DNA of 47,287 nt from a virus (lineage: Duplodnaviria > Heunggongvirae > Uroviricota > Caudoviricetes), in IMG/VR virus record IMGVR_UViG_2870474514_000002. One strand, given 5' to 3'. Of the stretch, positions 1 through 47,287 are shown one piece after another (the stretch's first letter is position 1; each line of letters starts with the position of its first letter). Both the position numbers and the translations under genes were made by a program. The notes under the pieces are model-generated. The model saw only the letters and a program-made list of their open reading frames with translations, did no database searches and had not been told where the DNA came from.

Positions 1-207
1 CAGGCTGAATAAGAGCAGATCAAATTATATATAACTGTTCACAATAAGGTAAGTGAACGGAAGATACAGTAATAGCTATCAACATCACACGCATGCCCAG
101 GCAACTGGATTACATAACTATGTTTTTTGTAACTGGTTAGATTCTTCCGTTCAGCATTTATATTGTAAAAATAGCGCTCCCATATAGAACTATATTTTTA
201 CCCTATA

Positions 208-299
208 GGTGCAGCTGGCCACTCGATATCCGGCACTAAGGAAGTGCCAACACGACATCAGCAAGACCCGATATTTCTTCCATGCCGCCAGCAACGATG
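208..299 (-). pseudogene. Degenerate remnant of a tfa 3' end (second, non-functional copy)
   Basis: About 91 bp resembling 939..1029 (3' end of the intact tfa) in direct orientation. The minus-strand reading gives [14 protein letters not shown], then a frame disruption, then PDIEWPAAP. No upstream tfa body; flanks are AT-rich. Confidence 0.5.
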
Positions 300-901
300 T
301 TAAGGTTAAATTAATTATAACAAATATAATATAATTCCATCTTCGCATTAAATTTTAACCTTTAATCTCCACACGGAACAAGTTGCATGGGTGACTATAT
401 TAAGAAAACTTATAACAAATAGAAAATATTTACATTATAAACAAACCTAAAGTCATTGACTCTAAGATAATTCTGATCTATCGTTTTGGTAATTAACGTT
501 ACTTAGCAATCTTTCGAAATGAAGATACAAAGCAAATTGATTATCTTATTAAACATTATTTTTGCACTAATACTCTTTAAACTTTTAGCTCAAAAGTTTG
601 GTTTATACACCTTATTTTAAGATAAACAATATAGATAACATTAACGCTTTACAATGAACGACTTACACTATACTCAAGAAATATTATTTACTTATCTTCC
701 CTATTGCTATAAGTTAACATAGTGGCTTATGCCACTCTACTTTCATCATATTTTGTACGTTTATGTACTCGCCATGAAACTCTTTCATGGCGCTTTCTTA
801 TTCTCAATCCATAATCGTACTCTCTATCCTATTGCAAATCACGCCTCAACAAACTCATAACACATTTAAGTGATTATTACTAACTTACTCAAAAACAGAT
901 A

Positions 902-1510
902 TTATTCACAGGTGATGAGTTCTAATGAATTACACTTCGGTGCTGCTGGCCAATCAACATCAGGTGCAGTTGATGTATCAACACGGTTCAGCAACACCCG
1001 ATACTTCTTCCATGCTGCCAGCAACGACGCCTCTTCTTCCGTTGCGATCTCCAGATCCACAGCATCCTGAAGCGGCGCTATATGCTCACTGGCTACCTGC
1101 ATCAGGCTGTTTTTTGTTTCTTCCGCCTCCCGGATCCGGAACAGTTTTTCTGCTTCTGCATCTTTCACCCAGGCTGTGCCGTTCCACTTCTGAAACTCCC
1201 CTTCCGGGGATAACCAGGTGACATTTTCCGGTAATGGGCCAAGTTCAGAAATAAATAACGCGTCGCCGGAAGCCACGTCATAGACGGTTTTACCCCGATG
1301 GTCTTCAACGAGATGCCACGATGCCTCATCACTGTTGAAAACAGCCACGAAACCAGCCGGAATATCTGGCGGTGCAATATCGGTACTGTTTGCTGGCAGA
1401 CCTGTATGAGGCGGAATATATGCATCACCTTCACCAATAAATTCATTAGTTCCGGACAGCAGATTATAAATTGTTATGGTCCGTGGTTGTTCACTCATTC
1501 TGAATGCCAT
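902..1510 (-). CDS. tfaR: Tail fibre assembly protein (Tfa, lambda/Rac type)
   Basis: 202 aa ORF immediately downstream of stf. C-terminal [20 protein letters not shown] motif typical of Tfa chaperones. Start codon overlaps the stf stop. Confidence 0.85.
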
Positions 1511-4500
1511 TATGCAAGCCTCACAATATAGTTAAATGCGATGTTTTTGACGGTGTTTTCCGCGTTACCAGCAGCGTTAACGGTGATGGTGTGTCCATGT
1601 GAGCCAATCGCAACAGAGTGCGTATGAGCACCAATACCGACAGTATGTGCGTGAGCACCTGCAGATGCAGCTGTGCCGCTGACACTATGAGTGTGCGCTC
1701 CTGCAGCACTTGTATTCACACTGGACGCAGACACTACCTTATGTACTGATCCATTTTGTGACCACTGGCTGACTGCTGATGCGCCTGTGACACTATGAGT
1801 ATGGTTTCCGGCACTTGCGGCTGTACCGCTCACACTGTGCGTATGTGCCCCGGTGTTATTCGTGGATTTAGTGCCGTAATCAAACGACGATGTGGTTTTC
1901 GTCCCCAAATCCGTACTGGATGCGCTGGCGCTGTGGGTGTGCGATTTAATGCCGTCCTGTTCCTGAGACAATACGGCCCGACCACTGGCAGGTTTGCCCT
2001 TAATCGTCCAGCCACGCATATCAGGGATCACGCCTGACGGATAAGCCGCTGCAAGTTTCGGGTATGCAGATTTGTCAAAAGTCTGCCCCTGCATCAGGGC
2101 ATAGCCAGACGGAACGGTATCTGATGGCCACGGGATTGGTGCGCCGACTGGGTAGCTTTCTGGTGGAAGATTTTTCGAGGTATAAACTTCTGCCCAGTCT
2201 TCCTCAAAACCATAGCCATCTCTTGAGGAACGGTAGAACAGACCTCCATTTCTGTAATGTGCCTTCATCTGCAGGGTCCGGCAACTTCCGACTCCGGTAT
2301 AGAAGTTAACCAGAATATAGCTGTCGCCAGAGCGGGTGACATTGTAAGCGCCTGATTCGGCATTCCATGGAACGCCCCCATCCGCATCGGCATACGTATC
2401 CGTTGCCCTTCTGGCAAAAGCAGCCACATGCGCGGCGGTTAAAGTAATATCTTTGGAACCATCAAACTCAACACCAGAAACCAGTCTTGGCGTTTGCAGC
2501 TTTGTTGCTGTTAATGCATTACCGTTCAGACTTGCGGACAGTTTGGTTCCAATAACCAGTTCGCCGGTTGCGTTATCAATAGCAAACGGTCTTAATGTAT
2601 TCCAGCCACCATAAACATCACCTTGATTGGTAAGCAGCAGGTAAGTTTTAGCGCCATCATTACGCCATAATGCACCATACTCCCCACCTATCATTCGAAT
2701 CTGATTACCACCACGCGCTACAATTTCGTCTGTGGCAAAAAGTTTTTTGCACGACAAGTTATCGTTAACGATTAACGAATGAGACTCATAAAAACCACGC
2801 CCACTCTTAAAATCAAGGATAACGTCCGCCGCGATACATTCAGTCGCTGGATTTGTTGCCCCAAACTTATAGGTCGTATCATTAACAACGAGATCAGCAC
2901 CAGGTGCGGATATTGACAGGCCATCTTCGATAAACGCAAAAACAGGGAAAGCAGCGCCATCAACATAGAACACAGAGCGCAAATCATCGCCCTTATTACT
3001 CATCATTATTGAGTGGATGGCTCGTTCATTGTTTTGATATTGCCAGAACATTCCATAAGCATAACGCCCCCTGTCAGTCCAGCCACCAGGCATAACAAAT
3101 CCGTTAAACTCGCAGTTATTCATCGGATCGCCTGCGGTTCGCGTTGCCGTGGTGATAATGACCCTTGATGCCAGTTCGCTTACTGAGCCAGCAGAACGCA
3201 TAACAACAACAGGGTAATATTTTCCAGATGTTGCACCTGCAGGAGCGTTAACCCGCACATAACGCATACCACGCTTATCAGCAAAGTCTGTTTTACTGAC
3301 CGCGTTAATGTTGTTCAGGAAGCGTCCCTTATCGGGTATATCAGCGCCGTTCTGGTCTTTCTGCAGACGTTTCTCTGCATTGTCATAGGCTGATTTTACT
3401 GCCTTTGGCGTTGCCGCCAGCGTTTCAGACGTGCTGTTGGTCGCACTGCTGAGCTGTACTATCCCCTTTTTCGTCGTACTTGCATCCTCAAGCGCCACGG
3501 CGGATGCAATATCCTCTGCCCGTTTTGCCGCTGTCTCGGCGCGCGTTGCCGCGGATTCTGCCGTACTTTTGCTCTGTGCTGCCGCCGTCGCACTGCCAGC
3601 TGCCTCTGTCGCCTTCGTGGATGCTGTCGTGGCGCTGCCCTTCGCTGCGGACGCTTGTCTGGTCGCCTCATCTTTTGAAGCAGACGCCGATGAGGCCGAT
3701 GACGCCGCCGAACTGGCGGACGATGCGGCAGCCGTTTTTGAGGATTCTGCGCTGGTTTCCGACGCTTTCGCGTTCGTCTCGGATGTCTTCGCTGCGGAAG
3801 CAGACCTCGCTGCTGCACTGGCCTGTTCAGTGGCTTCGCCAGCCTTCGTTGTGGCTGTTGAAGCGGACGATGCGGCGCTTTCTGCCGATTTTCCGGCGGC
3901 GCTAGCACTGGCTGAGGCCTGCCCGGCACTTGTTGACGCGGCACTGGCAGACGACGCAGCCGCTGTTTTTGAGCCTGCCGCAGCTGAGGCACTCTGTCCC
4001 GCTGCCGTTTCAGAAGACTTAGCGTTCGTCTCGGACGTTTTTGCCGCCTTCGCAGAATTTGCTGTCGCCGTTGCCGAGGAAGCTGCGCTGCTGGCGCTCG
4101 AGGCTGCGCTCGTTTCTGATGATTTTGCCGCCTCTTTTGAAGCTGACGCATCCCGGGCTGAGGTGGCAGCTTCTGACGCTTTCGTGGTCGCGGTGGATGC
4201 AGAAGTGGCTGCTGATTGTTGTGACTCTGCCGCATTCGTTTCTGACGTTTTCGCCGCAGCGGCACTGGTGGCCGCCGAGCTTTTTGAGGACTCTGCAGCG
4301 GCAGCACTTTTTGATGCTTCAGTGGCCTTTGTTGATGCCGTTCCTGCGCTGGAAGACGCTGACTGAGCCGACGACGCGGCCTGTCCGGCTGACGTGCTGG
4401 CTGCACGTGCTGAATCTGCAGCATCAGTCGCATGGGTTGCCGCCTCACGGGCAGATGTGCTGGCATCACTGGCTGACTTCTTCGCGGCTGCCGTGTTCTG

Positions 4501-4863
4501 TGCCACTGCGGACGCGTTACGCGCCACCTCTTCCACCATCAGTTCAAAACGTCGCAATGCCTCCGGACGGGCATCATCCTCCGTCATGGCACCGAGAAAA
4601 TCATTCAGCGTACCGGGTTGAGAATCTTCATACACGGTGATGGTCCCGGCATGTGACGGCGGGAATCCCTCCACCAACAGAATAACGCTGTACTGACCGT
4701 ACTCAACGTCCATGCTGTAACGCCCGGCTTCATCCGGATTTTCTGAGGCCACCGTGTTCACCACCACCGTGGTGCTGTTACGTTTTGCTTTCAGCTGGAT
4801 TGTGCAGTTCTGTACCGGTTTTCCTGTGCCGTCTTTCAGTACACCTGAAATCTTTACTGCCAT
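1510..4863 (-). CDS. stfR: Side tail fibre protein Stf
   Basis: About 1117 aa. N-terminus [26 protein letters not shown] is lambda Stf-like. Long Ala/Ser/Thr-rich central repeats. C-terminal His-rich GAHTHSVSG repeats typical of fibre receptor-binding tips. ATG at 4863 has a GGGGTG SD; the GTG at 4869 used by the ORF track is an alternative. Confidence 0.9.
3460..4540. repeat. Low-complexity Ala/Ser/Thr codon tandem repeats inside stf
   Basis: Stf residues about 110-470 are repeated A/S/T/K/E units (for example [18 protein letters not shown]). The GC-rich repeats create long spurious ORFs on both strands (3431..4366 plus, 3459..4469 minus). Confidence 0.6.
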
Positions 4864-4872
4864 ATTCACCCC

Positions 4873-4900
4873 ACAAAAAAGCCCGCCTGAAGCGGCGGGC
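4873..4900 (-). terminator. Intrinsic terminator-like hairpin downstream of lom, just upstream of the stf start
   Basis: Stem GCCCGCC / GGCGGGC with a 6-nt loop (4881..4900), followed on the minus strand by TTTTTT (4875..4880). Confidence 0.5.
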
Positions 4901-4927
4901 TGTCATAACACTGTGTTACCTGGCTAA

Positions 4928-5527
4928 TCAGAATTTATAACCGACACCCACGATGAAACCGTCAGTGCGCCAGTCACCACTGCCGGAGCCTTCATAAGCA
5001 ATATCAATGGCCACGGATTCGGTCGGGTTAAACTGCACGCCAGCTCCCCACGCCAGAGACGTGTTGCTGTGGCGACCGTCATCACTTCCGGTCAGCACAT
5101 CGTGCGTTTTCCCCTTATTGTCAGTTACGCGGAGATAATCCCCGGAAAAAGTCGACACACGGCTGTAAGCCACACCCGCCATCGCATACGCGCTGAACCA
5201 TTCATTCACGCGCACAGACGGCCCCGCCATTACGCTGAACCAGCGGTTACGAACGGAATCTTCATGCCAGCGGGTATCGCTGTAATGGGTCAGCTGGCGA
5301 TTCTTGTCTCCTGCATAGCTGAATGACGTCACCATCCCCAGTGTGTCCGTAAACTCATAACGGTATTTCACGTTAATCCCGTTAAAATCATCGCTGCCGG
5401 GAACGTTCGTCGAGGCATGAAGATACCCCGCGCTCAGCGTGGACTGATGTTCAGACGCCCATGCAGGCGCACCGGATACGGCCAGACAAATGGCTGCGGA
5501 CAAAATGGCGGCATAAAGTTTACGCAT
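4928..5527 (-). CDS. lomR: Outer-membrane protein Lom (Ail/Lom beta-barrel family)
   Basis: 199 aa with signal peptide MRKLYAAILSAAICLAVSGAPAWA, alternating beta-strand pattern and a C-terminal GVGYKF ending in Phe. Sits between J and stf as in lambda. Confidence 0.9.
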   Translation of the reverse strand: MRKLYAAILSAAICLAVSGAPAWASEHQSTLSAGYLHASTNVPGSDDFNGINVKYRYEFTDTLGMVTSFSYAGDKNRQLTHYSDTRWHEDSVRNRWFSVMAGPSVRVNEWFSAYAMAGVAYSRVSTFSGDYLRVTDNKGKTHDVLTGSDDGRHSNTSLAWGAGVQFNPTESVAIDIAYEGSGSGDWRTDGFIVGVGYKF

Positions 5528-5550
5528 AATTACCTCTCGCTTTTCTGCAA

Positions 5551-5575
5551 TAAAAAAGGCGTCATTTCTGACGCC
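5551..5575 (-). terminator. Intrinsic terminator-like hairpin between J and lom
   Basis: Stem GGCGTCA / TGACGCC with loop TTTC (5558..5575), followed on the minus strand by TTTTTTA (5551..5557). Confidence 0.5.
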
Positions 5576-5593
5576 CGTTCTGGGTTATAAAAT

Positions 5594-8995
<3,402 letters not shown>

Positions 8996-9052
8996 TCACA
9001 CTCCATAAACGACAAAACCGCCCGCAGGCGGTTTCACATAAAACATTTTGCA

Positions 9053-9700
9053 TCAGCGACCAATCACCACAACCTGACCACCGTCCCCTTCGTCTGCCGT
9101 GCTGATCTCCTGAGAAACCACGCGTGACCCCACGCGCATTTCCCCGTACAGAACAGGCAGAACATTGCCCTGGGCAACCATGTTGTCCAGTGACGAGAAA
9201 TACGTGTTCTGCTTACCGTTATCCGTTGTTTGTGTGCGGGGAGTTCTGGGTTTAGGGGCCAGCATCTGGGCCACACCGCCAAGGATCATACTGGCCCCCG
9301 CACCATACATTCCTGTAATTGCGGCAGCCCCCAACCAACCTGCAGGGTTCCACCATGCCACCGCAATCAGCGCCGCCCCCAGCACAGCCTGAAAAAGACC
9401 GCCACTTTTGGCTCCCGCCAGACGCGGCACAATGTGGATCACGGCACCATTTGCCAGCGGTTCATTAAGACGGGCTGATAATTCAGTTTCACCTGCATCA
9501 CGCCCGGCAATGCGTACCTGATACCAGCCGTCGCTCAGTTTCTGACGAAACGCCGGAAGCTGTGTGGCCAGTGCCCGGATGGCTTCGGCCCCCGTTTTCA
9601 CACGCAGGTCGATGCGGCGGCCAAATCGTTGTAAATCCCCGTAAAGGCAGATTCGCGCCATGCCCGGTGACGCCAGAGGGAGTGTGTGCGTCGCTGCCAT
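9053..9700 (-). CDS. I: Tail assembly protein I
   Basis: 215 aa. N-terminus MAATHTLPLASPGMARICLYGDLQRFGRR and C-terminal NGKQNTYFSSLDNMVAQGNVLPVLYGEMRVGSRVV are typical of lambda gpI. The 5' end overlaps the K 3' end out of frame, so the start is uncertain. Confidence 0.8.
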   Translation of the reverse strand: MAATHTLPLASPGMARICLYGDLQRFGRRIDLRVKTGAEAIRALATQLPAFRQKLSDGWYQVRIAGRDAGETELSARLNEPLANGAVIHIVPRLAGAKSGGLFQAVLGAALIAVAWWNPAGWLGAAAITGMYGAGASMILGGVAQMLAPKPRTPRTQTTDNGKQNTYFSSLDNMVAQGNVLPVLYGEMRVGSRVVSQEISTADEGDGGQVVVIGR

Positions 9701-10341: not shown

Positions 10342-10346
10342 GGGAT

Positions 10347-34081: not shown

Positions 34082-34110
34082 ATGATCATATTAAAAATAC
34101 TTTAACAATC

Positions 34111-36041: not shown

Positions 36042-36464
36042 TTACCGAATAAATTCCTGGATACTTCCTCGATAAAACATCAGTACACGCTTCATAACTT
36101 CGCTCTTACGGCACTCGCTACAGATTATATTCAGACGCCCGTCATATCGGCGTATTTCTCCGTCTGGTAATGACCAGATAAGGTCAGGATCAACCACAAC
36201 CGTTTTTTTCACCTTTGCCCTGGATAGTTTTTTGCGGGCGTTATTCCAGTCCTTACGAGCCTGTTCAGAGGTAAATAACCCATAGCCAGAGTTGTATACA
36301 TCGCCACTGGCAACCAACTCTCTGGCAAGAATGCTCATCAGATATCTTGTCGCCCCTGTCTTGGCCTCCAGTTGCCTTAACGTCTCGCGCCCACTCTGGC
36401 GTACCAGCTCAACAACCTGCTCCTTAATTTTTTCACGCTCTTCCTGTGTAAAAACTTTTGCCAT
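36042..36464 (-). CDS. Hypothetical phage protein (nin-like region)
   Basis: 140 aa from the ATG at 36464 (MAKVFTQEEREK), with a GGAGG SD 6 nt upstream. Confidence 0.5.
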   Translation of the reverse strand: MAKVFTQEEREKIKEQVVELVRQSGRETLRQLEAKTGATRYLMSILARELVASGDVYNSGYGLFTSEQARKDWNNARKKLSRAKVKKTVVVDPDLIWSLPDGEIRRYDGRLNIICSECRKSEVMKRVLMFYRGSIQEFIR

Positions 36465-36479
36465 AAGCGCCTCCGGCAA

Positions 36480-37241: not shown

Positions 37242-37263
37242 TAAAATTTCCTCCCGGTAAAAA

Positions 37264-38010
37264 TCACTTCGCAATTCCTAGCTGGACGACATTCGGACGC
37301 CAGCTCTCCCAGTTAAAATTCACCCATCGCCCGCCGTTCATGGTCATGCGATCCATAATCCTCTCGCCGAGCAATGTTTTCATGGCCTCATAGTTCAGGT
37401 TTGTCAGCATCCCCACGCTGCGCATCGACGCTGTCCGGCGATCAACAATCTGGTGCAGCACCACCTGCTCGTTTTTTGTCTCGCGCTGAATGCCAATTTC
37501 ATCAAGAACCAGCAGATCCACTTGGCACAGTTCCCGCAAAAATTTTTCGCCTGATTGCCCGTCGTCATAGCTAGCGTGTAGAGCACTCATGACATCAGCC
37601 ACGGTAACCACAATCACTGTCTGGCCATCTTTCAGCAGGCGATTCCCGATAGCCGCCGCCAGATGGTTTTTTCCGGTACCAGGTTTTCCGCTGAACGCAA
37701 AATTTGTACACCCGGTCATCAGTTCATCAGCGATAGATTTCGCCTGGTTCAACGCATATCGCTGACCGTCGTTCTGCACCTGGTAATTCGCAAACGAGCA
37801 TTTGCGGTGCAATGGCTGGATGCCAGAGCGATTCAGAATTTTTTCCACCCGCAACTGACGATTCTGACGGTTGATCTCCTCACAACGTTTCTGGCCTTCG
37901 GAAAGTTGCCACTCACGCCACTCCGCCACCGTCTTGAATGGCGCGGTTACATGTGACGGGGCCAGTCTGCGGATACGTTCAAGAACGCCGCCTGTCGCAA
38001 TATTTTTCAT
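37264..38010 (-). CDS. ydaV: DnaC-like replication helicase loader
   Basis: 248 aa with Walker [16 protein letters not shown] and Walker B LLVLDEIG. Confidence 0.85.
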
Positions 38011-38016
38011 GGTCAG

Positions 38017-38874
38017 TTACCCCCTGAAGCCTGGCGGGATCGCACTGTCCGGTAACGAAACGGTGTTAACCCGTCGGAGTAACGTCTCAGGTCGAACACC
38101 TTTCGGCGCGAACAAGCCCTGGTATTCGTTGGCGATGCTGTGTCGAATCACCTGCTCAGGTGAAAAACCCTGCTGGCGGAATTTTTCCAGCTCCCGTATC
38201 GCCCCGTTAGCGCCCTGCTCCGTTCGAATCGGTTTACGCAATGCCTGGCGAAATTCAACCCACTCACGCCAAAGCGAGACAGAAATCCAGTTCGGCAAAG
38301 CAATATCCAGAGGGTCAAACTTTTTGACACCTCGATTCCCCCGGGGGGGATTTAGGGGGGGAGCTGTTTTTAGATCTTTATCTGTATCTTTATTAGTTGC
38401 CTTTGTGTTGACATCATGTTCAAACACCACTTCAACATCTGTTTGAACACCTGTTAAATTTCTCTCTTGTTTTGTTTGAACATCTGCTTCCTTTCTGCTT
38501 CTTCTGGCCTGAACAGATGCTTTTCCTGCGGCTGATTTTTTGGTTAATTTTTCCCTGACTGATGCCAGATCTTCCTCAATCCGAAGATGTACCCATTCCT
38601 CGCCGTTATCGCAAAAAAACTCCCGCAAGGATGGTTCAACATCAGCCCATCGCTCGTTAGTCAGACGGGCAATTTTTGCCAGCCTGTTTTTGGGTATTGG
38701 CTTTCCTGTTTGCCAGTAATTGAACATCAGCAACAAATACGCGCCATGCTCCTCTGCTGACAAATGCATGGTGTCAGCCAGGTAATCAGCTATGTACAGT
38801 TGCATGTATGGTAATGCGGCCATAATTGCCCCGTATGATGCTGCCCGGTGGCTTAGAATAAGCACAAACAGCAT
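38017..38874 (-). CDS. ydaU: Replication initiation protein (O-like), YdaU-like
   Basis: 285 aa ORF directly upstream of the DnaC-like gene, with a Lys/Thr/Asp-rich linker. An alternative start exists at 38823. Confidence 0.6.
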   Translation of the reverse strand: MLFVLILSHRAASYGAIMAALPYMQLYIADYLADTMHLSAEEHGAYLLLMFNYWQTGKPIPKNRLAKIARLTNERWADVEPSLREFFCDNGEEWVHLRIEEDLASVREKLTKKSAAGKASVQARRSRKEADVQTKQERNLTGVQTDVEVVFEHDVNTKATNKDTDKDLKTAPPLNPPRGNRGVKKFDPLDIALPNWISVSLWREWVEFRQALRKPIRTEQGANGAIRELEKFRQQGFSPEQVIRHSIANEYQGLFAPKGVRPETLLRRVNTVSLPDSAIPPGFRG

Positions 38875-38886
38875 GGAAACTTTTGC

Positions 38887-39309
38887 TTAATGAACAATGA
38901 CAGAATCGTCGGAAGACCCGCCGCCGCTGAAATGCGCTTTCCGGTAAACGGCCTGGACTGCATCATCATGCGCATCAATTGCCGTACTTAACGCTTCCTG
39001 CGCCGCCAGTAATGCACGGCGTTCCAGGGTATCGAAGATGCAGAGTCGGTGACGCAGCTCGCGCGGAAGGATTGCCAGAATTGCAGGGATCAGTTTCTGA
39101 ATTTTTTCCCTTTGCGCTTCCGTTTCACCTTTTAACCAACGGTGATAGATGTTCTGCTGATTATTCCAGTCCTTGCCTGGTACCAGGGGCAATTCGCCGC
39201 CCCCCTGGCGCAGATATTCTTCAGTAATGGCATTGGCTACCCATGCCTGCCCTTTTTCGGCTGCCAGGGCTAACAACACTGACTCGATGTGCTCATGCTT
39301 GATTTTCAT
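38887..39309 (-). CDS. ydaT: YdaT-like protein (CII-like regulator / cryptic toxin)
   Basis: 140 aa ORF immediately downstream of the Cro-like ydaS homologue, overlapping it by 4 nt. Confidence 0.7.
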   Translation of the reverse strand: MKIKHEHIESVLLALAAEKGQAWVANAITEEYLRQGGGELPLVPGKDWNNQQNIYHRWLKGETEAQREKIQKLIPAILAILPRELRHRLCIFDTLERRALLAAQEALSTAIDAHDDAVQAVYRKAHFSGGGSSDDSVIVH

Positions 39310-39560
39310 GAATCAACTCCCATCAGCTTTTTCGTAGTAGTTTTATTTCTGCCAATAGTTAAAATCACATCGGCAGAAAATAATCCGTTTGATGCATGAG
39401 CGATTTTTTCAGCGTAATTTGTTTCGCCGGTATATTCTGTGCGAGGCAATTTTCCGTTATCCATCCATTTGTAGATTGCTCTTTGGCTGACACCACAAAC
39501 GTCGGCCACAACAGAAACGCGAACAGTTTTGATTACATCTTCAAGTGTTTTCTGGTTCAT
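39306..39560 (-). CDS. ydaS: Cro-like HTH regulator YdaS
   Basis: 84 aa from the ATG at 39560 (GAGGGTGA SD); HTH segment VADVCGVSQRAIYKWMDNGKLP. Divergent from racR. Confidence 0.7.
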   Translation of the reverse strand: MNQKTLEDVIKTVRVSVVADVCGVSQRAIYKWMDNGKLPRTEYTGETNYAEKIAHASNGLFSADVILTIGRNKTTTKKLMGVDS

Positions 39561-39639
39561 ATCACCCTCACAATGTGAACTTTGAGTACATGCTATAACA
39601 GAACTGACAGTACATTCAAGAGCGAATATCATTGAACTT
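39561..39639. promoter_or_regulatory. Divergent promoter/operator region between ydaS and racR
   Basis: 79-bp intergenic region with two direct AGTACAT repeats (39585..39591 and 39609..39615, 24 bp apart). Confidence 0.35.
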
Positions 39640-40059
39640 ATGGTTCATGAAGATAAAGCGCGTAAAGAGTTCGCCAGTAGGCTTGCGCTAGCCTGTGAAA
39701 ACGCTGGTTATGAACAACATGGAAGGCAGGCAGAAATTGCCCGTCGAATGAAATTAACACCAAAAGCGGTTAGCAAATGGTTTAATGGCGAAACAATTCC
39801 TCGCCGAGAGAAATTAAGGGAATTAGCAACACTCATTGGAACAACACCAACCTATCTTTTGGGAGAGGATACAGAAGAAAGTGGACAGGTACGTTTCTAT
39901 CAGGAGTTAAATCCAAGACAAAAAATCATCATTGACCTTCTGGACGAGCTCCCTGACAGTGAGACAGATGAACTTTTAAAAACTCTTGAGGAGAAAAAAC
40001 AGAAGTACAATGCAATTTACGAAGAATTAGCACGAAAGAAAAAACAAAAAGCCTCTTAA
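39640..40059 (+). CDS. racR: Prophage repressor (XRE-family HTH), RacR-like
   Basis: 139 aa with an N-terminal HTH (RQAEIARRMKLTPKAVSKWFNGETIP) and an acidic/Lys-rich C-terminus; divergent from ydaS. Confidence 0.75.
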   Translation: MVHEDKARKEFASRLALACENAGYEQHGRQAEIARRMKLTPKAVSKWFNGETIPRREKLRELATLIGTTPTYLLGEDTEESGQVRFYQELNPRQKIIIDLLDELPDSETDELLKTLEEKKQKYNAIYEELARKKKQKAS

Positions 40060-40349
40060 ACCAGCATAAATCCGGTAGCGTCCCCCTCCGGGTTTGTGCT
40101 TCACTTTATCCCATCTCATTTTTTTACACACAAGATGTACTTAAAGTACTTTACATCAATGAACACAAAGTACATTATATACCTACCAACCCACCCCGCC
40201 CCACAGAACGCAGGGCAATACTTCGAGTTACCAGGCAGTGGTCAGGGGTTAAGTAGCCAGCCCGAGGCGTATGAACATGACGGCAGGGTTCAGATTTTGC
40301 AGTGCAGCAGGTTTCAGTTCCGCCACCCGGCGTTAAGGGGAGAGATAAG

Positions 40350-40484
40350 ATGGTGCATTACGAAGTAGTTCAGTATTTGATGGATTGTTGCGGTATCACT
40401 TACAACCAGGCTGTGCAGGCTTTACGCAGCAACGACTGGGATTTCTGGCAGGCAGAAGTCGCTATACGCAGCAACAAGATGTGA
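40350..40484 (+). CDS. ydaG: YdaG-like small protein
   Basis: 44 aa from the ATG at 40350 (AAGGGGAG SD): MVHYEVVQYLMDCCGITYNQAVQALRSNDWDFWQAEVAIRSNKM. Confidence 0.7.
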   Translation: MVHYEVVQYLMDCCGITYNQAVQALRSNDWDFWQAEVAIRSNKM

Positions 40485-40494
40485 GATTCGCAAA

Positions 40495-40647
40495 ATGCAA
40501 AAAATCGACCTCGGCAACAACGAATCCCTAGTGTGCGGCGTGTTCCCCAACCAGGATGGAACGTTCACTGCCATGACTTATACCAAAAGCAAGACATTCA
40601 AAACTGAAACGGGCGCACGTCGCTGGCTTGCCAGAAATACTTGCTAA
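40495..40647 (+). CDS. ydaF: YdaF-like small protein
   Basis: 50 aa, hand-translated: MQKIDLGNNESLVCGVFPNQDGTFTAMTYTKSKTFKTETGARRWLARNTC. Confidence 0.65.
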   Translation: MQKIDLGNNESLVCGVFPNQDGTFTAMTYTKSKTFKTETGARRWLARNTC

Positions 40648-40845
40648 TCCATTATTTGGATTAATTCAATATTCTCGCTGTAGGGGTATAGCAGAAACCA
40701 CCGAAGCCCGGAGGTGGTGAAATAAAACTGGGCGCAACACGAAGGCGCATTTCCGATATCCATAAAGAGTCGGTCTTGTCTGTTAAATTTAAATGGTGGG
40801 AGTGCGCCTCCGGTTGTAAATAACGACATTGCTGTGTGTAGTCTT

Positions 40846-40892
40846 GGCGGCATCAGTTTTTTCTTGAAGTTCGGCTGATGTCCGCCCTTTTT
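40846..40892 (+). terminator. Terminator-like hairpin in the sieB-equivalent gap
   Basis: Stem GGCGGCATCAG / CTGATG(T)CCGCC with an 18-nt loop, followed by CTTTTT. Confidence 0.35.
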
Positions 40893-41057
40893 AAAGTGAA
40901 TTTTGTGATGCGGTGAATGCGGCTAAGCGCACGCGGAACAGTTAAAAGCATCAGTGTTATGGGTGGATTATCCGGCGTTAATTGTTAACTGGTTAACGTC
41001 ACCTGGAGGCACCAGGCACCGCATCAACAAAGTTCATTTGTGAAAATGGAGATAATT

Positions 41058-41279
41058 ATGATTGCTCATCACTTCGGAACTGATGAAATACCTCGTCAGT
41101 GTGTGACTCCTGGTGATTATATTCTTCATAACGGCCGGACATATATTGCCTCGGCAAACAATATTAAAAAGCGAAAACTTTATATTCGTAACCTGACCAC
41201 AAAAACATGCATTACTGACTGCATGATTAAAGTCTTCCTCGGTCGTGATGGTTTACCTGTAAAGGCGGAGTCATGGTGA
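41058..41279 (+). CDS. kilR: KilR (FtsZ inhibitor / killing protein)
   Basis: 73 aa from [21 protein letters not shown], with a GGAG SD. Confidence 0.8.
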
Positions 41280-41449
41280 TGACTAAGAAAATAAAATGTG
41301 CTTACCATCTTTGCGATAAAGAAGTTAAAGAAAGCAAAAGCATTAAAAGACCACTTCATTTCATGCGTGGAGTTATCCCAACGACGGAAATGAAAAAATA
41401 TTGTAGTGAAATATGTGCCGAAAAAGACCAGATGGCACACGAACTTTAA
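41279..41449 (+). CDS. ydaE: YdaE-like small zinc-ribbon protein
   Basis: 56 aa, hand-translated: [56 protein letters not shown]. Start overlaps the kilR stop (TGATG). Confidence 0.7.
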   Translation: MTKKIKCAYHLCDKEVKESKSIKRPLHFMRGVIPTTEMKKYCSEICAEKDQMAHEL

Positions 41450-41523
41450 TTAACTGACTATGCGAAACTGAATTTATGCCAGCAATGGCAGGGATTCGCT
41501 CAACCTTAATTAAGGAGAAAAAC

Positions 41524-41799
41524 ATGATTACCAGTTATGAAGCCACTGTTGTAACTACTGATGACATTGTTCACGAAGTTAATCTGGAAGGAAAGCGTAT
41601 TGGCTACGTGATTAAAACAGAAAATAAAGAAACCCCATTCACTGTGGTTGATATCGACGGTCCATCAGGCAACGTTAAAACACTTCACGAAGGTGTCAAA
41701 AAAATGTGCCTGGTGCATACCGGAAAGAATCTGCCCGCAGAAAAAAAAGCCGAATTTCTGGCAACTCTAATTGCAATGAAATTAAAAGGTGAAATCTGA
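41524..41799 (+). CDS. racC: RacC
   Basis: 91 aa from MITSYEATVV, with an AAGGAG SD. Confidence 0.8.
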   Translation: MITSYEATVVTTDDIVHEVNLEGKRIGYVIKTENKETPFTVVDIDGPSGNVKTLHEGVKKMCLVHTGKNLPAEKKAEFLATLIAMKLKGEI

Positions 41800-41900
41800 A
41801 AGAAATAGCCTGCGTATGGCGCAGGCTATGAACAGTGTGTATCCGGCAAGATCATTCACTGAACAAAACGAATTTTAATCTGAGTTGAGGTTAAAAAACA

Positions 41901-44501
41901 ATGAGCACAAAACCACTCTTCCTGTTACGGAAAGCGAAAAAATCATCCGGTGAACCTGACGTCGTCCTGTGGGCAAGCGACGATTTTGAATCGACCTGTG
42001 CCACTCTGGACTACCTGATCGTTAAGTCAGGTAAAAAACTGAGCAGCTATTTTAAAGCTGTTGCCACGAATTTTCCTGTCGTTAATGACCTGCCCGCTGA
42101 AGGTGAGATCGATTTTACCTGGAGTGAACGCTATCAACTCAGCAAAGACTCCATGACATGGGAACTAAAACCGGGAGCAGCACCAGACAACGCTCACTAT
42201 CAAGGCAATACCAACGTCAACGGCGAAGACATGACTGAGATTGAGGAGAATATGCTACTCCCAATTTCTGGCCAGGAACTGCCCATTCGTTGGCTTGCTC
42301 AACACGGCAGCGAAAAACCGGTAACGCACGTTTCACGCGACGGACTCCAGGCATTACACATTGCTCGGGCTGAAGAACTACCGGCTGTTACTGCCCTGGC
42401 TGTTTCCCACAAAACCAGCCTGCTCGACCCGCTGGAAATTCGCGATCTCCACAAACTGGTTCGTGACACTGACAAAGTTTTCCCTAATCCTGGTAATTCA
42501 AACCTGGGACTGATAACTGCTTTTTTCGAAGCATACCTGAACGCTGACTACACCGATCGAGGACTGCTGACAAAAGAGTGGATGAAGGGTAATCGTGTTT
42601 CACACATCACTCGCACGGCTTCCGGTGCTAATGCTGGCGGCGGAAACCTCACCGATCGCGGCAAAGGTTTCGTACACGATCTGACGTCACTGGCGCGCGA
42701 CGTAGCCACTGGCGTACTGGCCCGTTCAATGGATCTGGACATCTATAACATTCATCCGGCACACGCTAAACGCATTGAGGAAATTATCGCTGAAAATAAA
42801 CCGCCCTTTTCTGTTTTCCGCGACAAATTCATCACCATGCCTGGCGGGCTGGATTATTCCCGCGCCATCGTGGTTGCGTCCGTAAAAGAAGCACCAATTG
42901 GGATCGAGATCATCCCCGCGCACGTCACTGAATATCTGAACAAAGTACTGACTGAAACCGATCATGCCAACCCTGATCCGGAAATCGTGGATATTGCCTG
43001 CGGTCGCTCCTCTGCCCCGATGCCGCAGCGAGTAACAGAAGAAGGAAAACAGGATGATGAAGAAAAACCGCAACCATCTGGAACAACGGCAGTTGAACAG
43101 GGAGAGACTGAAACAATGGAACCGGACGCAACTGAACATCATCAGGACACGCAGCCGCTGGATGCTCAGTCACAGGTAAATTCTGTTGATGCGAAATATC
43201 AGGAACTGCGGGCAGAACTCCATGAAGCCCGGAAAAACATTCCATCAAAAAATCCTGTCGATGCCAATAAATTGCTTGCTGCATCACGTGGTGAATTTGT
43301 TGACGGAATTAGCGACCCGAACGATCCGAAATGGGTAAAGGGGATCCAGACTCGCGATTCTGTGTACCAGAACCAGCCAGAAACGGAAAAAACCAGCCCG
43401 GATATGAATCAACCTGAGCCAGTAGTGCAACAGGAACCGGAAATAGCCTGCAATGCCTGCGGCCAGACTGGCGGGGATAACTGCCCTGACTGTGGTGCGG
43501 TGATGGGCGACGCAACATACCAAGAAACATTCGATGAAGAGAGTCAGGTTGAAGCTAAGGAAAATGATCCGGAGGAAATGGAAGGCGCTGAACATCCGCA
43601 CAATGAGAATGCTGGCAGCGATCCGCATCGCGATTGCAGTGATGAAACTGGCAAAGTCGCAGATCCCGTAATCGTAGAAGACATAGAGCCAGGTATTTAT
43701 TACGGAATTTCGAATGAGAATTACCACGCGGGTCCCGGTGTCAGTAAGTCTCAGCTCGATGACATTGCTGATACTCCGGCATTGTATTTGTGGCGTAAAA
43801 ATGCCCCCGTGGACACCACAAAGACAAAAACGCTCGATTTAGGAACCGCTTTCCACTGCCGGGTACTTGAACCGGAAGAATTCAGTAACCGCTTTATCGT
43901 AGCACCTGAATTTAACCGCCGTACAAACGCCGGAAAAGAAGAGGAGAAAGCGTTTCTGATGGAATGCGCAAGCACAGGAAAAACGGTTATCACTGCGGAA
44001 GAAGGCCGGAAAATTGAACTCATGTATCAAAGCGTTATGGCTTTGCCGCTGGGGCAATGGCTTGTTGAAAGCGCCGGACACGCTGAATCATCAATTTACT
44101 GGGAAGATCCTGAAACAGGAATTTTGTGTCGGTGCCGTCCGGACAAAATTATCCCTGAATTTCACTGGATCATGGACGTGAAAACTACGGCGGATATTCA
44201 ACGATTCAAAACCGCTTATTACGACTACCGCTATCACGTTCAGGATGCATTCTACAGTGACGGTTATGAAGCACAGTTTGGAGTGCAGCCAACTTTCGTT
44301 TTTCTGGTTGCCAGCACAACTATTGAATGCGGACGTTATCCGGTTGAAATTTTCATGATGGGCGAAGAAGCAAAACTGGCAGGTCAGCTGGAATATCACC
44401 GCAATCTGCGAACCCTGGCTGACTGCCTCAATACCGATGAATGGCCAGCTATTAAGACGTTATCACTGCCCCGCTGGGCTAAGGAATATGCAAATGACTA
44501 A
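41901..44501 (+). CDS. recE: Exonuclease VIII (RecE)
   Basis: 866 aa, the same length as K-12 RecE, with an acidic low-complexity middle region and a C-terminal nuclease domain. Followed by recT with an 8-nt overlap. Confidence 0.95.
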
Positions 44502-45303
44502 GCAACCACCAATCGCAAAAGCCGATCTGCAAAAAACTCAGGGAAACCGTGCACCAGCAGCAATTAAAAATAACGACGTGATTAGTTTTATTAACCAGCC
44601 ATCAATGAAAGAGCAACTGGCAGCAGCTCTTCCACGCCATATGACGGCTGAACGTATGATCCGTATCGCCACCACAGAAATTCGTAAAGTTCCGGCGTTA
44701 GGAAACTGTGACACTATGAGTTTTGTCAGTGCAATCGTACAGTGTTCACAGCTCGGACTTGAGCCCGGTAGCGCCCTCGGTCATGCATATTTACTGCCTT
44801 TTGGTAATAAAAACGAAAAGAGCGGTAAAAAAAACGTTCAGCTAATCATTGGCTATCGCGGCATGATTGATCTGGCTCGCCGTTCAGGTCAAATCGCCAG
44901 CCTGTCAGCCCGTGTTGTCCGTGAAGGTGACGAGTTTAATTTCGAATTTGGCCTTGATGAAAAGTTAATACACCGCCCAGGAGAAAACGAAGATGCCCCG
45001 GTTACCCACGTCTATGCTGTCGCAAGACTGAAAGACGGAGGTACTCAGTTTGAAGTTATGACGCGCAAACAGATTGAGCTGGTGCGCAGCCAGAGTAAAG
45101 CTGGTAATAACGGGCCGTGGGTAACTCACTGGGAAGAAATGGCAAAGAAAACGGCTATTCGTCGCCTGTTCAAATATCTGCCCGTATCAATTGAGATCCA
45201 GCGTGCAGTATCAATGGATGAAAAGGAACCACTGACAATCGATCCTGCAGATTCCTCTGTATTAACCGGGGAATACAGTGTAATCGATAATTCAGAGGAA
45301 TAA
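44494..45303 (+). CDS. recT: Recombinase RecT (single-strand annealing protein)
   Basis: 269 aa from [13 protein letters not shown]. Confidence 0.95.
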
Positions 45304-45359
45304 TTCAGCCTGGCGGTGTAATGCACCGCCAACTTGAAATATTTTTTATGAGAAAAATT

Positions 45360-45554
45360 ATGAGATATGACAATGTTAAACCATGTCCATTTTGTGGTTG
45401 TCCATCAGTAACGGTGAAAGCCATTTCAGGATATTACCGAGCGAAGTGTAACGGATGCGAATCCCGAACCGGTTATGGTGGAAGTGAAAAAGAAGCACTC
45501 GAAAGATGGAATAAACGAACCACTGGAAATAATAATGGAGGTGTTCATGTATAA
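45360..45554 (+). CDS. ralR: Restriction alleviation protein RalR (Lar)
   Basis: 64 aa: MRYDNVKPCPFCGCPSVTVKAISGYYRAKCNGCESRTGYGGSEKEALERWNKRTTGNNNGGVHV, with a CxxC...CxxC zinc ribbon. Confidence 0.85.
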   Translation: MRYDNVKPCPFCGCPSVTVKAISGYYRAKCNGCESRTGYGGSEKEALERWNKRTTGNNNGGVHV

Positions 45555-45735
45555 AATTACCGCCACTATTGAAAAGGAAGGTGGCACTCCTACTAACTGG
45601 ACAAGATATTCAAAATATAAACTAACTAAATCAGAATGCGAAAAAATGCTCTCAGGTAAAAAAGAAGCAGGCGTTTCCAGAGAGCAGAAAGTAAAACTGA
45701 TAAATTTTAATTGCGAGAAACTTCAGTCCTCGTGA
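45547..45735 (+). CDS. ydaC: YdaC-like small protein
   Basis: 62 aa from MYKITATIEK, with a GGAGG SD 5 nt upstream; overlaps the ralR stop by 8 nt. An alternative start lies 4 codons upstream. Confidence 0.55.
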   Translation: MYKITATIEKEGGTPTNWTRYSKYKLTKSECEKMLSGKKEAGVSREQKVKLINFNCEKLQSS

Positions 45736-45834
45736 ATTGCATTGTATTCAAATTAAAACTTCATAGCTGATTATTAATAATCAACATCGGGCGTCAATTT
45801 AAGTCTAACATTGGCGCCTGCCAGAGGTGATGCG

Positions 45835-46050
45835 ATGGCACAAGTAATCTTTAATGAAGAGTGGATGGTTGAATACGGCCTGATGCTTCGCACTGGTCTG
45901 GGGGCCAGACAAATTGAAGCATACCGCCAGAACTGTTGGGTGGAAGGCTTCCACTTCAAACGAGTATCTCCTTTAGGGAAGCCAGACAGTAAGCGAGGAA
46001 TTATCTGGTACAACTATCCAAAGATAAATCAGTTTATCAAAGACTCATGA
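45835..46050 (+). CDS. xisR: Excisionase (XisR/YdaQ-like)
   Basis: 71 aa from [16 protein letters not shown], with a GAGGTGA SD; ends 1 nt before the integrase start. Confidence 0.65.
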
Positions 46051-46051
46051 T

Positions 46052-47287
46052 ATGTCTAAATTACCAACAGGTGTCGAGATTCGAGGTAAATACATTCGCA
46101 TCTGGTTCATGTTTCGAGGAAAACGATGTCGGGAAACATTGAAAGGCTGGGAGGTTACTAACAGTAACATTAAAAAAGCCGGGAATTTAAGAGCGTTGAT
46201 AGTTCATGAAATCAATTCCGGTGAGTTTGAGTATTTAAGACGTTTTCCCCAGTCCAGCACTGGGGCAAAAATGGTGACAACGAGGGTCATAAAAACGTTC
46301 GGGGAGCTTTGTGATATCTGGACAAAAATTAAAGAAACAGAGTTAACAACAAACACAATGAAGAAAACGAAATCACAATTAAAAACACTCAGGATAATAA
46401 TTTGTGAGAGTACCCCGATATCGCATATTCGTTATAGCGATATCTTAAACTACCGGAATGAACTGCTGCATGGAGAAACGCTTTACCTAGATAATCCAAG
46501 ATCCAACAAAAAAGGAAGAACCGTGCGCACAGTTGATAATTATATCGCCCTGCTCTGTTCGTTGTTACGTTTTGCGTATCAGTCGGGATTTATATCAACC
46601 AAACCATTTGAAGGAGTAAAAAAATTACAGAGAAACAGAATAAAGCCTGACCCGTTATCTAAAACAGAATTCAATGCATTAATGGAAAGTGAAAAAGGAC
46701 AGAGCCAGAACTTGTGGAAATTTGCCGTATACTCCGGGCTTCGTCACGGGGAACTGGCTGCTCTGGCGTGGGAGGATGTGGATTTCGAGAAGGGAGTTGT
46801 GAATGTCAGAAGAAACCTGACGATACTTGATATGTTCGGTCCCCCAAAAACAAATGCGGGGATCCGGACGGTAACACTACTGCAGCCTGCTCTTGAAGCA
46901 CTGAAGGAGCAATACAAACTGACCGGGCATCATCGCAAAAGCGAAATCACTTTTTATCATCGGGAGTACGGCAGAACCGAAAAGCAAAAACTGCATTTTG
47001 TTTTCATGCCCAGAGTGTGTAACGGAAAACAGAAACCTTATTACTCGGTAAGCAGTTTGGGTGCGAGATGGAATGCAGCAGTAAAACGTGCTGGTATTCG
47101 CCGCCGTAATCCGTACCATACGCGGCATACTTTTGCCTGCTGGCTGTTGACGGCAGGAGCGAACCCGGCGTTTATAGCCAGCCAGATGGGGCATGAAACT
47201 GCGCAGATGGTGTATGAAATTTACGGTATGTGGATTGATGACATGAACGACGAACAGGTAGCCATGTTGAATGCGCGGTTATCGTAG
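46052..47287 (+). CDS. intR: Tyrosine integrase
   Basis: 411 aa with the C-terminal catalytic signature of tyrosine recombinases (R...HTRHTFA...G...Y region: NPYHTRHTFACWLLTAGANPAFIASQMGHET). Stop coincides with the window end. Confidence 0.9.
   Translation: MSKLPTGVEIRGKYIRIWFMFRGKRCRETLKGWEVTNSNIKKAGNLRALIVHEINSGEFEYLRRFPQSSTGAKMVTTRVIKTFGELCDIWTKIKETELTTNTMKKTKSQLKTLRIIICESTPISHIRYSDILNYRNELLHGETLYLDNPRSNKKGRTVRTVDNYIALLCSLLRFAYQSGFISTKPFEGVKKLQRNRIKPDPLSKTEFNALMESEKGQSQNLWKFAVYSGLRHGELAALAWEDVDFEKGVVNVRRNLTILDMFGPPKTNAGIRTVTLLQPALEALKEQYKLTGHHRKSEITFYHREYGRTEKQKLHFVFMPRVCNGKQKPYYSVSSLGARWNAAVKRAGIRRRNPYHTRHTFACWLLTAGANPAFIASQMGHETAQMVYEIYGMWIDDMNDEQVAMLNARLS

Follow-up and report, generated by a model that had tools for sequence, protein, structure and literature searches.

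The window, i.e., the whole stretch of 47,287 nucleotides analysed here, corresponds with 100% identity to positions 749223-796509 of the E. coli AR_0374 chromosome (NZ_CP027126.1). The locus is bordered by ttcA-dbpA on one side and by uspF on the other, a context identical to that of the Rac prophage of E. coli K-12. Each of the 54 annotated coding sequences is translated from a single ORF (54/54), a full functional gene set was assigned with Pfam and PHROGs, and the genes follow the lambdoid order: int-xis, recombination, kil, divergent repressor/cro with operators, replication, nin, Q, lysis, terminase, head, and tail. The only pseudogene or transposase flag raised by PGAP concerns a 100-bp remnant of a tail fibre assembly gene (198-297), and no IS elements are annotated by PGAP in the window; the absence of internal stops and insertion sequences reported in an earlier sequence-only reading was thus borne out.

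The right end of the window (45835-47287, plus strand) encodes the excisionase XisR and the integrase IntR, 100% and 98.8% identical, respectively, to the K-12 proteins. The attL site begins approximately 76 bp past the window end, within ttcA, and attR, with the duplicated core (ttcC), adjoins uspF. The core common to both sites comprises 26 bp, of which 15 consecutive ones match perfectly; TTTGCCCC repeats are present in the flanking arms, and in genomes with an empty site the match ends at the core. Relative to K-12, the IntR-proximal arm is unchanged over the part compared, and identity is 96.9% for the segment on the attR side. K-12 Rac, with nearly identical Int and Xis proteins, is able to excise (PMC4632033); judging by these sequences, the AR_0374 prophage is likely to be excised as well.

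To the left of the window the prophage extends for a further 5.8 kb, with an MFS transporter gene, sitDCBA, and attR, giving an att-to-att span of approximately 53.2 kb with the sit/MFS cargo counted in. With attR this far out, sitABCD and the MFS transporter gene are prophage cargo. SitABCD is a manganese and iron uptake virulence factor; nothing relevant was found in the literature on sitABCD within Rac-type prophages, and there are no convincing repeats around the sit cassette. Within the window, the tail-fibre end is an AT-rich non-coding spacer (1-901, minus strand; 33% GC) holding the 198-297 remnant, which derives from a second tail fibre assembly gene. Beyond tfa this end is unlike the pinR-ynaE-ynaM segment of K-12, MFS-sitDCBA being present instead. 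The claim that an intact prophage fills positions 1-47287 stands in part: with attL and attR both located in the flanks the prophage is not truncated, but the window is not the whole of it, because the 5.8 kb with the sitABCD/MFS cargo and both att sites fall outside.

The early-left region (40350-45735, plus strand) comprises ydaG, ydaF, kilR, ydaE, racC, recE, recT, ralR, and an rcbA-like gene; on the opposite strand, at 45553-45731, Rfam recognized the antitoxin sRNA RalA. The recE-recT, ralR/RalA, kilR, racC, and ydaT-U-V genes occur in the K-12 order, and protein identity is 94-100% except for YdaE (73%). No sieB gene is found in the window, 46 bp being present in its place (blastn versus K-12). 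The immunity region (39306-40059, both strands) is composed of a gene for a Cro-like HTH protein of 84 aa (39306-39560, minus strand), a gene for an HTH_3 repressor of 139 aa that has no peptidase domain (39640-40059, plus strand), and three operator-like repeats of 17 nt each (39576-39649). Window positions 39316-40183 gave no blastn match to racR/ydaS of K-12. Since lambdoid relatives commonly exchange their immunity regions, neither this mismatch nor the lack of sieB excludes membership in the Rac family. The repressor contains HTH_3 only, with no S24 autocleavage domain, and no LexA box (CTGT-N8-ACAG) occurs anywhere in the window; to judge from these features, SOS induction may be weak or absent.

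The replication and early-right genes (36042-39309, minus strand) encode DUF977 (Ren-like), DUF1627 (full-length YdaW), YdaV, YdaU, and YdaT (cII-like) proteins; no N-like antiterminator was identified in the window. They are followed by a low-GC cargo island (32871-36041), including approximately 870 bp devoid of genes, with a gene for a YeaR-like DUF1971 protein (33743-34081, plus strand), queH (34694-35362, minus strand), and a 90-aa ORF (35633-35905, plus strand). A PADLOC search with the cargo and unknown proteins revealed no defence system. The nin/Q region (31442-32870, minus strand) encodes DUF1367 and YbcO (DUF1364) proteins and a DUF1133 protein (31442-31984, minus strand), the candidate Q-like antiterminator. 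Its match to PF06530 is borderline (27.4 bits versus a cut-off of 26), that to phrog_753 'Q-like' reaches 3e-79, and the depositors of MN652886 name the DUF1133 gene Q. Between this gene and the lysis genes lie tRNA-Gly(TCC) and tRNA-Thr(TGT) (30936-31089, minus strand). The lysis cassette (28984-30157, minus strand) encodes the holin EssD, the endolysin RrrD, and Rz, with an embedded Rz1 that has a lipobox (29043-29228, minus strand); next comes trkG for a potassium transporter (27389-28846, minus strand), low-GC cargo that K-12 Rac also has.

Three ORFs separate trkG from the terminase genes (25345-27251, minus strand): one of 69 aa, one for a 310-aa protein of the TAGT family (TET-associated glycosyltransferase), and one for a 264-aa ParB/Srx N-domain protein. 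No PDB entry matched the TAGT-like protein in a sequence search. The ParB/TAGT gene pair also occurs in Lactobacillus, Nocardia, and haloarchaeal viruses, and the sole PADLOC match was due to the ParB N-domain, which resembles the N-terminus of some methyltransferases. The terminase genes (22965-25341, minus strand) encode a headful-type TerL (Terminase_6N and 6C) and a TerS of 364 aa that gives a full-length match to phrog_51. The 69-aa ORF (25345-25554) is in the terS frame, with a stop and one codon between the two. A nonsense mutation in terS was considered and rejected: the 364-aa TerS spans phrog_51 end to end, and strain H10 has the same two proteins.

The head module (18353-22962, minus strand) is of the HK639 type and encodes a P22-family coat protein, a DUF6651 protein in the scaffold position, a MuF-like minor head protein, and a DUF4055 portal; the coat protein scores 47.8 bits against PF11651 (P22_CoatProtein), the cut-off being 24. 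Genes for the tail tube (Phage_tube_2), the tail terminator, Neck1, Hc1, Ad1, and a 58-aa protein follow (15593-18310, minus strand), and then those for tail chaperone G (a 153-aa ORF) and the G-T fusion of 256 aa (14775-15544, minus strand), the latter made via a -1 frameshift at A_AAA_AAG (15095-15089). PGAP calls a shorter G, which it names 'YdaY'. The tape measure protein (TMP) has 1077 aa (11376-14609, minus strand). The tail tip genes J, I, K, L, and M (5594-11383, minus strand), in which a mosaic joint and a step in GC content lie near 11067, are followed by an intact lom for an Ail/Lom outer membrane protein (4928-5527, minus strand), the StfR side tail fibre gene (1510-4863, minus strand), and the gene for the Tfa tail fibre assembly protein (902-1510, minus strand). 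The sequence-only reading had listed a Q-like gene, tRNAs, a complete lysis cassette, a terminase, and a head module with a P22-type coat protein, and all of these are present.

Its description of the tail as fully lambda-like proved only partly correct. Window positions 6036-11067 are 93.4% identical to positions 13407-18461 of lambda (NC_001416), with protein identities of 98% for L, 89% for J, 88.5% for K, 76% for I, and 93% for Tfa (lambda orf-194), whereas M, Lom, and TMP share merely 29-46% with their lambda counterparts. The window terminase, head, connector, tube, terminator, and G/T genes have no BLAST match in lambda (V, U, Z, and G/T by tblastn, E<1e-3); equivalents of the lambda tube, terminator, and chaperone are present by function, the G/G-T frameshift being of the same design. 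The overall lambdoid gene order is common to both, although recombination is of the RecET kind in the window and of the Red kind in lambda, and the replication and immunity genes differ. The head genes find their relatives in HK639 (NC_016158), an isolated lambdoid phage with a head module in the same order, whose gp03-07 proteins are 68.5% (portal), 50% (MuF), 66% (scaffold position), 74.7% (coat), and 62% (small protein) identical to those of the window. The HK639 terminase is unrelated by BLAST, its connectors are mostly unrelated, its tail proteins are 30-33% identical, and its early region differs and uses put-type antiterminator RNAs. The mosaic of a P22/SPP1-like head with a lambda-like tail proposed in the sequence-only reading needs correction in that the head is of the HK639 type, and since an isolated phage has it, the mosaic is not new.

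KingRac, an active Rac-like phage from mouse E. coli (Frazao et al. 2019, PMC6731689), was located in NZ_CP054662.1, ending at ttcA near position 2,906,780, and the comparison covered its terL-to-attL part. Like the window prophage it is integrated at ttcA and has tRNA genes after the Q-like gene; int-xis-ralR, the ydaT-DUF977 replication block, DUF1367-YbcO-DUF1133, and ydaG/F are 92-97% identical at the nucleotide level. It differs in having a lambda-type terminase with no match to the window terminase genes, other lysis genes, and four tRNAs; exo/bet/gam accompany a shortened recE, a Rha gene is present, and trkG and ParB are lacking. In KingRac, the sole demonstrably active Rac-like phage found in this analysis, the Rac-type region for early, replication, and Q functions is at work (PMC6731689). 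As proof of activity of the window late region KingRac had to be rejected, for the sharing is limited to the early, replication, and Q blocks; with its different late genes it is uninformative on this point. Phages vB_EcoS-683R6, -666R9, -673R7, and -613R10, as well as Salmonella phage SPF_0923, belong to the same lineage as the window (96-98% nucleotide identity over 81-86% of either half). The vB_EcoS records, several of them partial, were not accepted as evidence of virions, being PHASTER-predicted prophage regions from draft genomes. [quoted passage not shown]

By homology with known lambdoid systems, the 139-aa HTH repressor would silence the prophage at the three operator-like repeats beside the divergent Cro-like gene. 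Derepression would open two operons: the leftward one would supply KilR, RecE/RecT, Xis, and Int, and the rightward one YdaT/U/V for replication, the nin gene products, and DUF1133 as a Q-like antiterminator. The latter may then promote late transcription across the tRNAs, the lysis genes, trkG, ParB/TAGT, terminase, head, and tail. Headful packaging of DNA is predicted, the capsid being of the HK639 type with a coat of the P22 fold; the attached tail would be that of a siphovirus, with the tip proteins L, K, I, and J those of lambda. On the gene content, the production of infectious particles by the prophage is plausible, the chances being about even.

The strongest competing explanation, to which we give somewhat less than an even chance, is that the prophage is grounded: its ORFs are open, yet no infectious particles are made, either because the genome became oversized after the gain of sitABCD/MFS or because of regulatory or cis-site defects, and it is kept by vertical inheritance together with selection on its cargo (trkG, sit, lom, and recET). 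The att-to-att length of 53.2 kb, against 49.6 kb in HK639 with its related coat protein, could exceed a headful, and the repressor without an autocleavage domain and the missing LexA box point the same way. The occurrence of the lineage in hundreds of genomes at the same site with 97-99% identity fits vertical descent. The phage collection searched contained no isolated phage genome with the whole window gene set, and ParB is already truncated in the H10 copy. Against grounding speak the 54 open genes out of 54, the intact programmed frameshift site, Rz1 lipobox, and att arms, and the dN/dS values of 0.1-0.2 of the tail genes relative to the H10 copy. The late genes as a whole are under purifying selection in this comparison (pooled dN/dS 0.14), the head genes being too similar to those of H10 for selection to be measured. 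That the lineage is instead a temperate phage that remains active, the living version of a classical Rac never isolated with these late genes, is unlikely; such a phage would move sitABCD, trkG, and QueH among E. coli strains by lysogeny, and the ParB/TAGT pair next to the terminase might modify or mark phage DNA.

The relationship with the Rac prophage of K-12 MG1655 (NC_000913.3, 1411899-1434958) was established by blastn. Seven blocks are collinear from intR to tfaR with 94.9-99.9% nucleotide identity, in agreement with the gene content and order asserted in the sequence-only reading: 94.9-96.3% for tfaR-stfR-lomR (stfR/tfaR 94.9%), 99.9% for tmpR/ynaA-ydaY, 99.0% for ynaK-trkG-rzpR, 96.0% for ydaW-ydaT, 95% for ydaG/F, and 97.3% for kilR to intR. 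Proteins common to both are 90-100% identical apart from YdaE, e.g., RecE/RecT 98.5% and TrkG 99.4%. The ttcA integration site, the neighbouring genes, and the intR-to-tfaR gene order are the same; K-12 Rac differs by the IS5 insertion in lomR and by the presence of sieB and of racR/ydaS as immunity genes. A different prophage lineage having only a Rac-like early region in common with K-12 could be imagined from the mosaic nature of Rac-like prophages, KingRac and Rac-SA53 sharing the early but not the late region, and from the dissimilar immunity region of the window. It is very improbable, as the K-12 late markers rzpR/rzoR, trkG, ynaK, ydaY, tmpR, lomR, stfR, and tfaR are all matched in order with 95-99.9% identity, and the likeness is therefore not confined to the early region.

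The sequences missing from K-12 Rac sum to 27.3 kb and correspond to three deletions, each a single junction with 2-bp microhomology: window positions 5326-13676 (8351 bp; TG), 15435-26999 (11565 bp; TT), and 29429-36793 (7365 bp; TA). The junctions cut genes on both sides, lom/TMP, G/ParB, and Rz/DUF1627, respectively, which means that the K-12 prophage is the deleted form and that the late region of the window is of the type it lost. The opposite polarity, with the short K-12 form ancestral and three blocks gained by insertion in the window copy, is the least credible reading of all, being refuted by the truncation at every junction of ORFs that are complete in the window (lom, TMP, G, ParB, Rz, and DUF1627) and disfavoured by the presence of the joined junction 2 in 348 of the 5426 complete genomes, as against approximately 1190 further genomes with one or both halves unjoined; no evidence was found in its favour. 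The window thus very probably represents most of a full-length Rac-family lambdoid prophage, integrated by IntR at the 5' end of ttcA in AR_0374, and K-12 Rac a deletion derivative of a close cousin. With collinear blocks, single-junction deletions, and all coding sequences open, the view of the element as a sequence-intact Rac-type prophage that holds what K-12 Rac lost is upheld.

This provides a clear origin for the textbook cryptic Rac, namely a 53-kb lambdoid phage altered by illegitimate deletion at three places, by insertion of IS5, and by the exchange of modules. The K-12 orphan genes are explained as fragments, which is useful for annotation and teaching: ynaK is the first 84 codons of the 264-aa ParB gene, ydaY is tail chaperone G without its start, ynaA/tmpR comprises tape measure codons 1-311 only, ydaW is the N-terminal part of DUF1627, and rzpR is Rz without its start. 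Additionally, lom of K-12 contains IS5, and deletion 1 removed the first 67 codons of the gene. Intact Rac-like prophages have already been described (PMC6379469, PMC4632033, PMC6731689). The present lineage is common, already deposited and annotated, and hence ordinary, with 80% or more of one window half or the other present in approximately 300-480 of the 5426 complete genomes. Existing knowledge is therefore unchanged, as such prophages and their mobility are documented and the lineage is common in sequenced E. coli.

Comparison of the window with positions 1408000-1438000 of the E. coli K-12 MG1655 chromosome by blastn gave seven collinear blocks, including tfaR, stfR and lomR (window 930-5325, 94.9-96.3% identity to K-12), tmpR/ynaA and ydaY (13675-15434, 99.9%), ynaK, trkG and rzpR/rzoR (26998-29428, 99.0%), ydaW to ydaT (36792-39315, 96.0%), ydaG and ydaF (40184-40626, 95%), and kilR to intR (40673-47287, 97.3%). 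The proteins common to the window and K-12 Rac are 90-100% identical, YdaE excepted at 73%; the values reach 100% for XisR, 99.4% for TrkG, 98.8% for IntR, and 98.5% for RecE and RecT. The gene content and order of K-12 Rac, proposed in the sequence-only reading, are thus borne out. The departures from K-12 are the immunity region (39316-40183), which bears no similarity to racR/ydaS, 46 bp in place of sieB, and a different end beyond tfa. Both halves of the window are found with 100% identity at 749223-796509 of the chromosome of E. coli strain AR_0374, NZ_CP027126.1. RefSeq annotates 54 protein-coding and two tRNA genes in this stretch, among them intR, xisR, ralR, recT, recE, kilR, ydaT/U/V, trkG, rrrD, essD, gpJ, and stfR. 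The observation as a whole is confirmed and its interpretation supported, with corrections concerning the boundaries and the sit cargo, the restriction of lambda homology to the tail tip, the HK639-type head, and the different immunity region.

K-12 lacks three stretches of the window: 5326-13676 (8351 bp), 15435-26999 (11,565 bp), and 29429-36793 (7365 bp). At each gap the flanking bases are adjacent in K-12, with a 2-bp overlap between the two alignments (TG, TT, and TA, respectively), the signature of illegitimate recombination. All the deletion ends lie inside genes that are complete in the window, and K-12 Rac is therefore the derived, deleted form. In K-12, lom has lost its first 67 codons and chaperone G its first 37, only codons 1-311 of the tape measure gene remain, about 84 codons of the ParB gene persist as ynaK, Rz has lost 7 codons to become rzpR, and about 150 codons of the DUF1627 gene are kept as ydaW. 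Among 5426 complete genomes, 348 have the second deletion's K-12 junction in its joined form, while about 1190 others contain one or both of its halves, unjoined. The incompleteness of K-12 Rac and the existence of intact counterparts in other strains have been stated in reviews (PMC6379469, citing Lawrence 2001), and PMC4632033 describes ttcA-integrated Rac-like prophages of O157, Shigella, and Salmonella. In the collection searched, 484 genomes contain 80% or more of the left window half and 295 contain as much of the right half. The finding is thus ordinary and already known; the exact three-deletion reconstruction, not found stated in the papers searched, is a refinement rather than a discovery.

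The window does contain the Q-like gene, tRNAs, lysis cassette, terminase, and head module with a P22-type coat listed in the sequence-only reading. The Q-like DUF1133 protein (31442-31984) matches Pfam Phage_antitermQ at a borderline 27.4 bits (cut-off 26) and, over its full length, phrog_753, 'anti-termination protein Q-like' (3e-79); its gene is followed by tRNA-Thr(TGT) and tRNA-Gly(TCC). The lysis cassette is complete, comprising a 71-aa holin, the endolysin RrrD, Rz, and, nested within it, a lipobox-containing Rz1 of 61 aa. The match of the 364-aa TerS to phrog_51 is full-length, and TerL, with Terminase_6N and 6C domains, is of the headful type. Directly upstream of terS and in the same frame lies a 69-aa ORF (25345-25554, minus strand), kept in strain H10, which matches the middle (positions 157-218) of a different TerS family, phrog_309, and looks like a stray HTH module. 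The head genes encode a DUF4055 portal, a MuF-like protein, a DUF6651 protein in the scaffold position, and a coat protein of the Pfam P22_CoatProtein family, and Ad1, Hc1, Neck1, the terminator, and the tube were also recognised with PHROGs and Pfam.

The gene annotated as ydaY is that of tail chaperone G, a 153-aa ORF (15083-15544, minus strand) matching phrog_313. At A_AAA_AAG (15095-15089, minus strand), a -1 shift fuses it with the following ORF (14775-15095, minus strand) into a 256-aa G-T product. This product is absent from the PGAP annotation, whose 119-aa 'YdaY' apparently follows the truncated K-12 gene. A terminator-like hairpin followed by a T run (GAAACCCACTTCGCGGTGGGTTTTTTGTTG, 14625-14660, minus strand) separates G-T from the start of the tape measure gene, a position within the late operon that is odd for a terminator. 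The distal tail consists of a 1077-aa tape measure followed by M, L, K, I, J, lom, stf, and tfa. All 54 CDS translations are free of internal stops, the annotated window contains no transposase, and its sole pseudogene is a 100-bp tfa remnant (198-297), so that the claimed lack of internal stops and IS insertions holds. An sRNA candidate of Rfam family IS009 (RF02111; 218.9 bits) lies within the tail fibre assembly gene (969-1167, minus strand).

The tail had been described as fully lambda-like, which is correct for its tip only. L, J, K, I, and Tfa share 98%, 89%, 88.5%, 76%, and 93% protein identity with lambda, and window 6036-11067 is 93.4% identical at the DNA level to lambda 13407-18461; identity is low for M (42%), Lom (46%), and the tape measure (29%), and the tube, terminator, G, connectors, head, and terminase gave no BLAST match to lambda. 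The mosaic joint is marked by a shift in GC content near 11000, from 58% to 43%. The combination of a P22-type head with a lambda-tipped siphovirus tail is real yet not new, since the cultured lambdoid phage HK639 already has it, with a head module in the same order (portal 68.5%, MuF 50%, scaffold-position protein 66%, coat 74.7% identity).

The window was also taken for an intact whole; its genes are open, but the element extends a further 5.8 kb to the left, on the attR side. To the right lie ttcA, dbpA, and zntB, the same neighbours as beside K-12 Rac, while the K-12 ttcC region with the adjacent prophage arm matches a site 5.8 kb left of the window, adjoining uspF. Both attachment sites were thus located in the flanks. 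Their common sequence, AAGAAAGAA..ATACAACCTGAACAA, is a core of 26 bp that differs at two positions and includes an uninterrupted 15-bp match (attL, within ttcA, at 23363-23388 of flanking record L002; attR at 199-224 of flanking record L001; both outside the window), unlike in K-12, where the two cores are identical to each other. In empty-site genomes the match reaches the core and no further. TTTGCCCC repeats occur in both prophage arms; the IntR-proximal arm is identical to that of K-12 over the compared stretch, and the TtcA N-terminus supplied by the phage differs between AR_0374 and K-12. The att-to-att span is about 53.2 kb.

The part of the prophage left of window position 1, which separates attR/ttcC from the tail fibre genes, carries the Mn/Fe uptake genes sitABCD and a gene for an MFS transporter (L001 385-6000, record 743607-749222), and sit would leave with the phage DNA on excision. 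Strain H10 has the same uspF-ttcC-sitABCD-cargo-tfaR arrangement with a diguanylate cyclase gene replacing the MFS gene, whereas K-12 has 34 bp at the place of the 3.8-kb sit cassette. A low-GC (32-41%) cargo island (window 32871-36041), between the nin and replication genes, holds a YeaR-like DUF1971 protein, the epoxyqueuosine reductase QueH (E. coli's own enzyme is QueG), a 90-aa ORF without a family, and about 870 geneless bp; it gave no PADLOC match. Directly upstream of the terminase, a 264-aa protein with a ParB/Srx N-domain, of which K-12 YnaK is a remnant, overlaps a 310-aa protein of the TAGT (TET-associated glycosyltransferase) family (25532-27251, minus strand; Pfam TAGT, 5.5e-35, whole domain). 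The same overlapping pair, at 40-47% identity, occurs in Lactobacillus phage phi jlb1, Nocardia phage NTR1, and haloarchaeal virus HHTV-2 (records L009 3274-4849, L010 3196-4858, and L011 3-1720), directly upstream of the terminase or a few genes before it; in NTR1 it abuts terL directly. Roles in DNA modification and in packaging are both possible, and the window contains no dioxygenase or C5-methyltransferase.

Activity of the prophage is favoured by its open reading frames, by intact frameshift and lysis signals, and by att sites and Int/Xis nearly identical to those of K-12 Rac, which is excision-proficient (PMC4632033). The pooled dN/dS against the H10 copy is 0.14, with 0.1-0.2 for the tail genes and too few differences in the head genes to judge. 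What may speak against activity is the 139-aa repressor, whose only domain is HTH_3 and which lacks an autocleavage domain, together with the absence of a LexA box from the window. The repressor gene and a divergent Cro-like gene are separated by three operator-like repeats of 17 nt (TGAACTTTGAGTACATG and variants, 39576-39649, with spacings of 24 and 33 nt), in a region unrelated to K-12 racR/ydaS. The element is also larger than HK639 (53.2 versus 49.6 kb), a difference that could affect headful packaging.

Known phages likewise do not speak for activity: the 'phage' records nearly identical to the window were predicted with PHASTER, and the phage collection contained no complete isolated phage with the gene set of the window. 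KingRac, the one Rac-like phage shown to be inducible and transmissible (PMC6731689), was located here in NZ_CP054662.1. Its similarity to the window is confined to the int-xis, replication, nin/Q, and tRNA blocks (85-97% nucleotide identity); it has a lambda-type terminase and neither trkG nor ParB. Its DUF1627 (YdaW) gene (14836-15597 of the KingRac region, L007) is annotated with an internal stop, which suggests that phage growth does not require DUF1627. The phage record PP818812.1, 'Actinobacillus phage vB_Apl-pPE4', also contains eight segments of the Rac early region (recE, recT, primosomal protein) with 91% nucleotide identity to the window. This would be surprising in a phage of Pasteurellaceae, and the host may have been misassigned.
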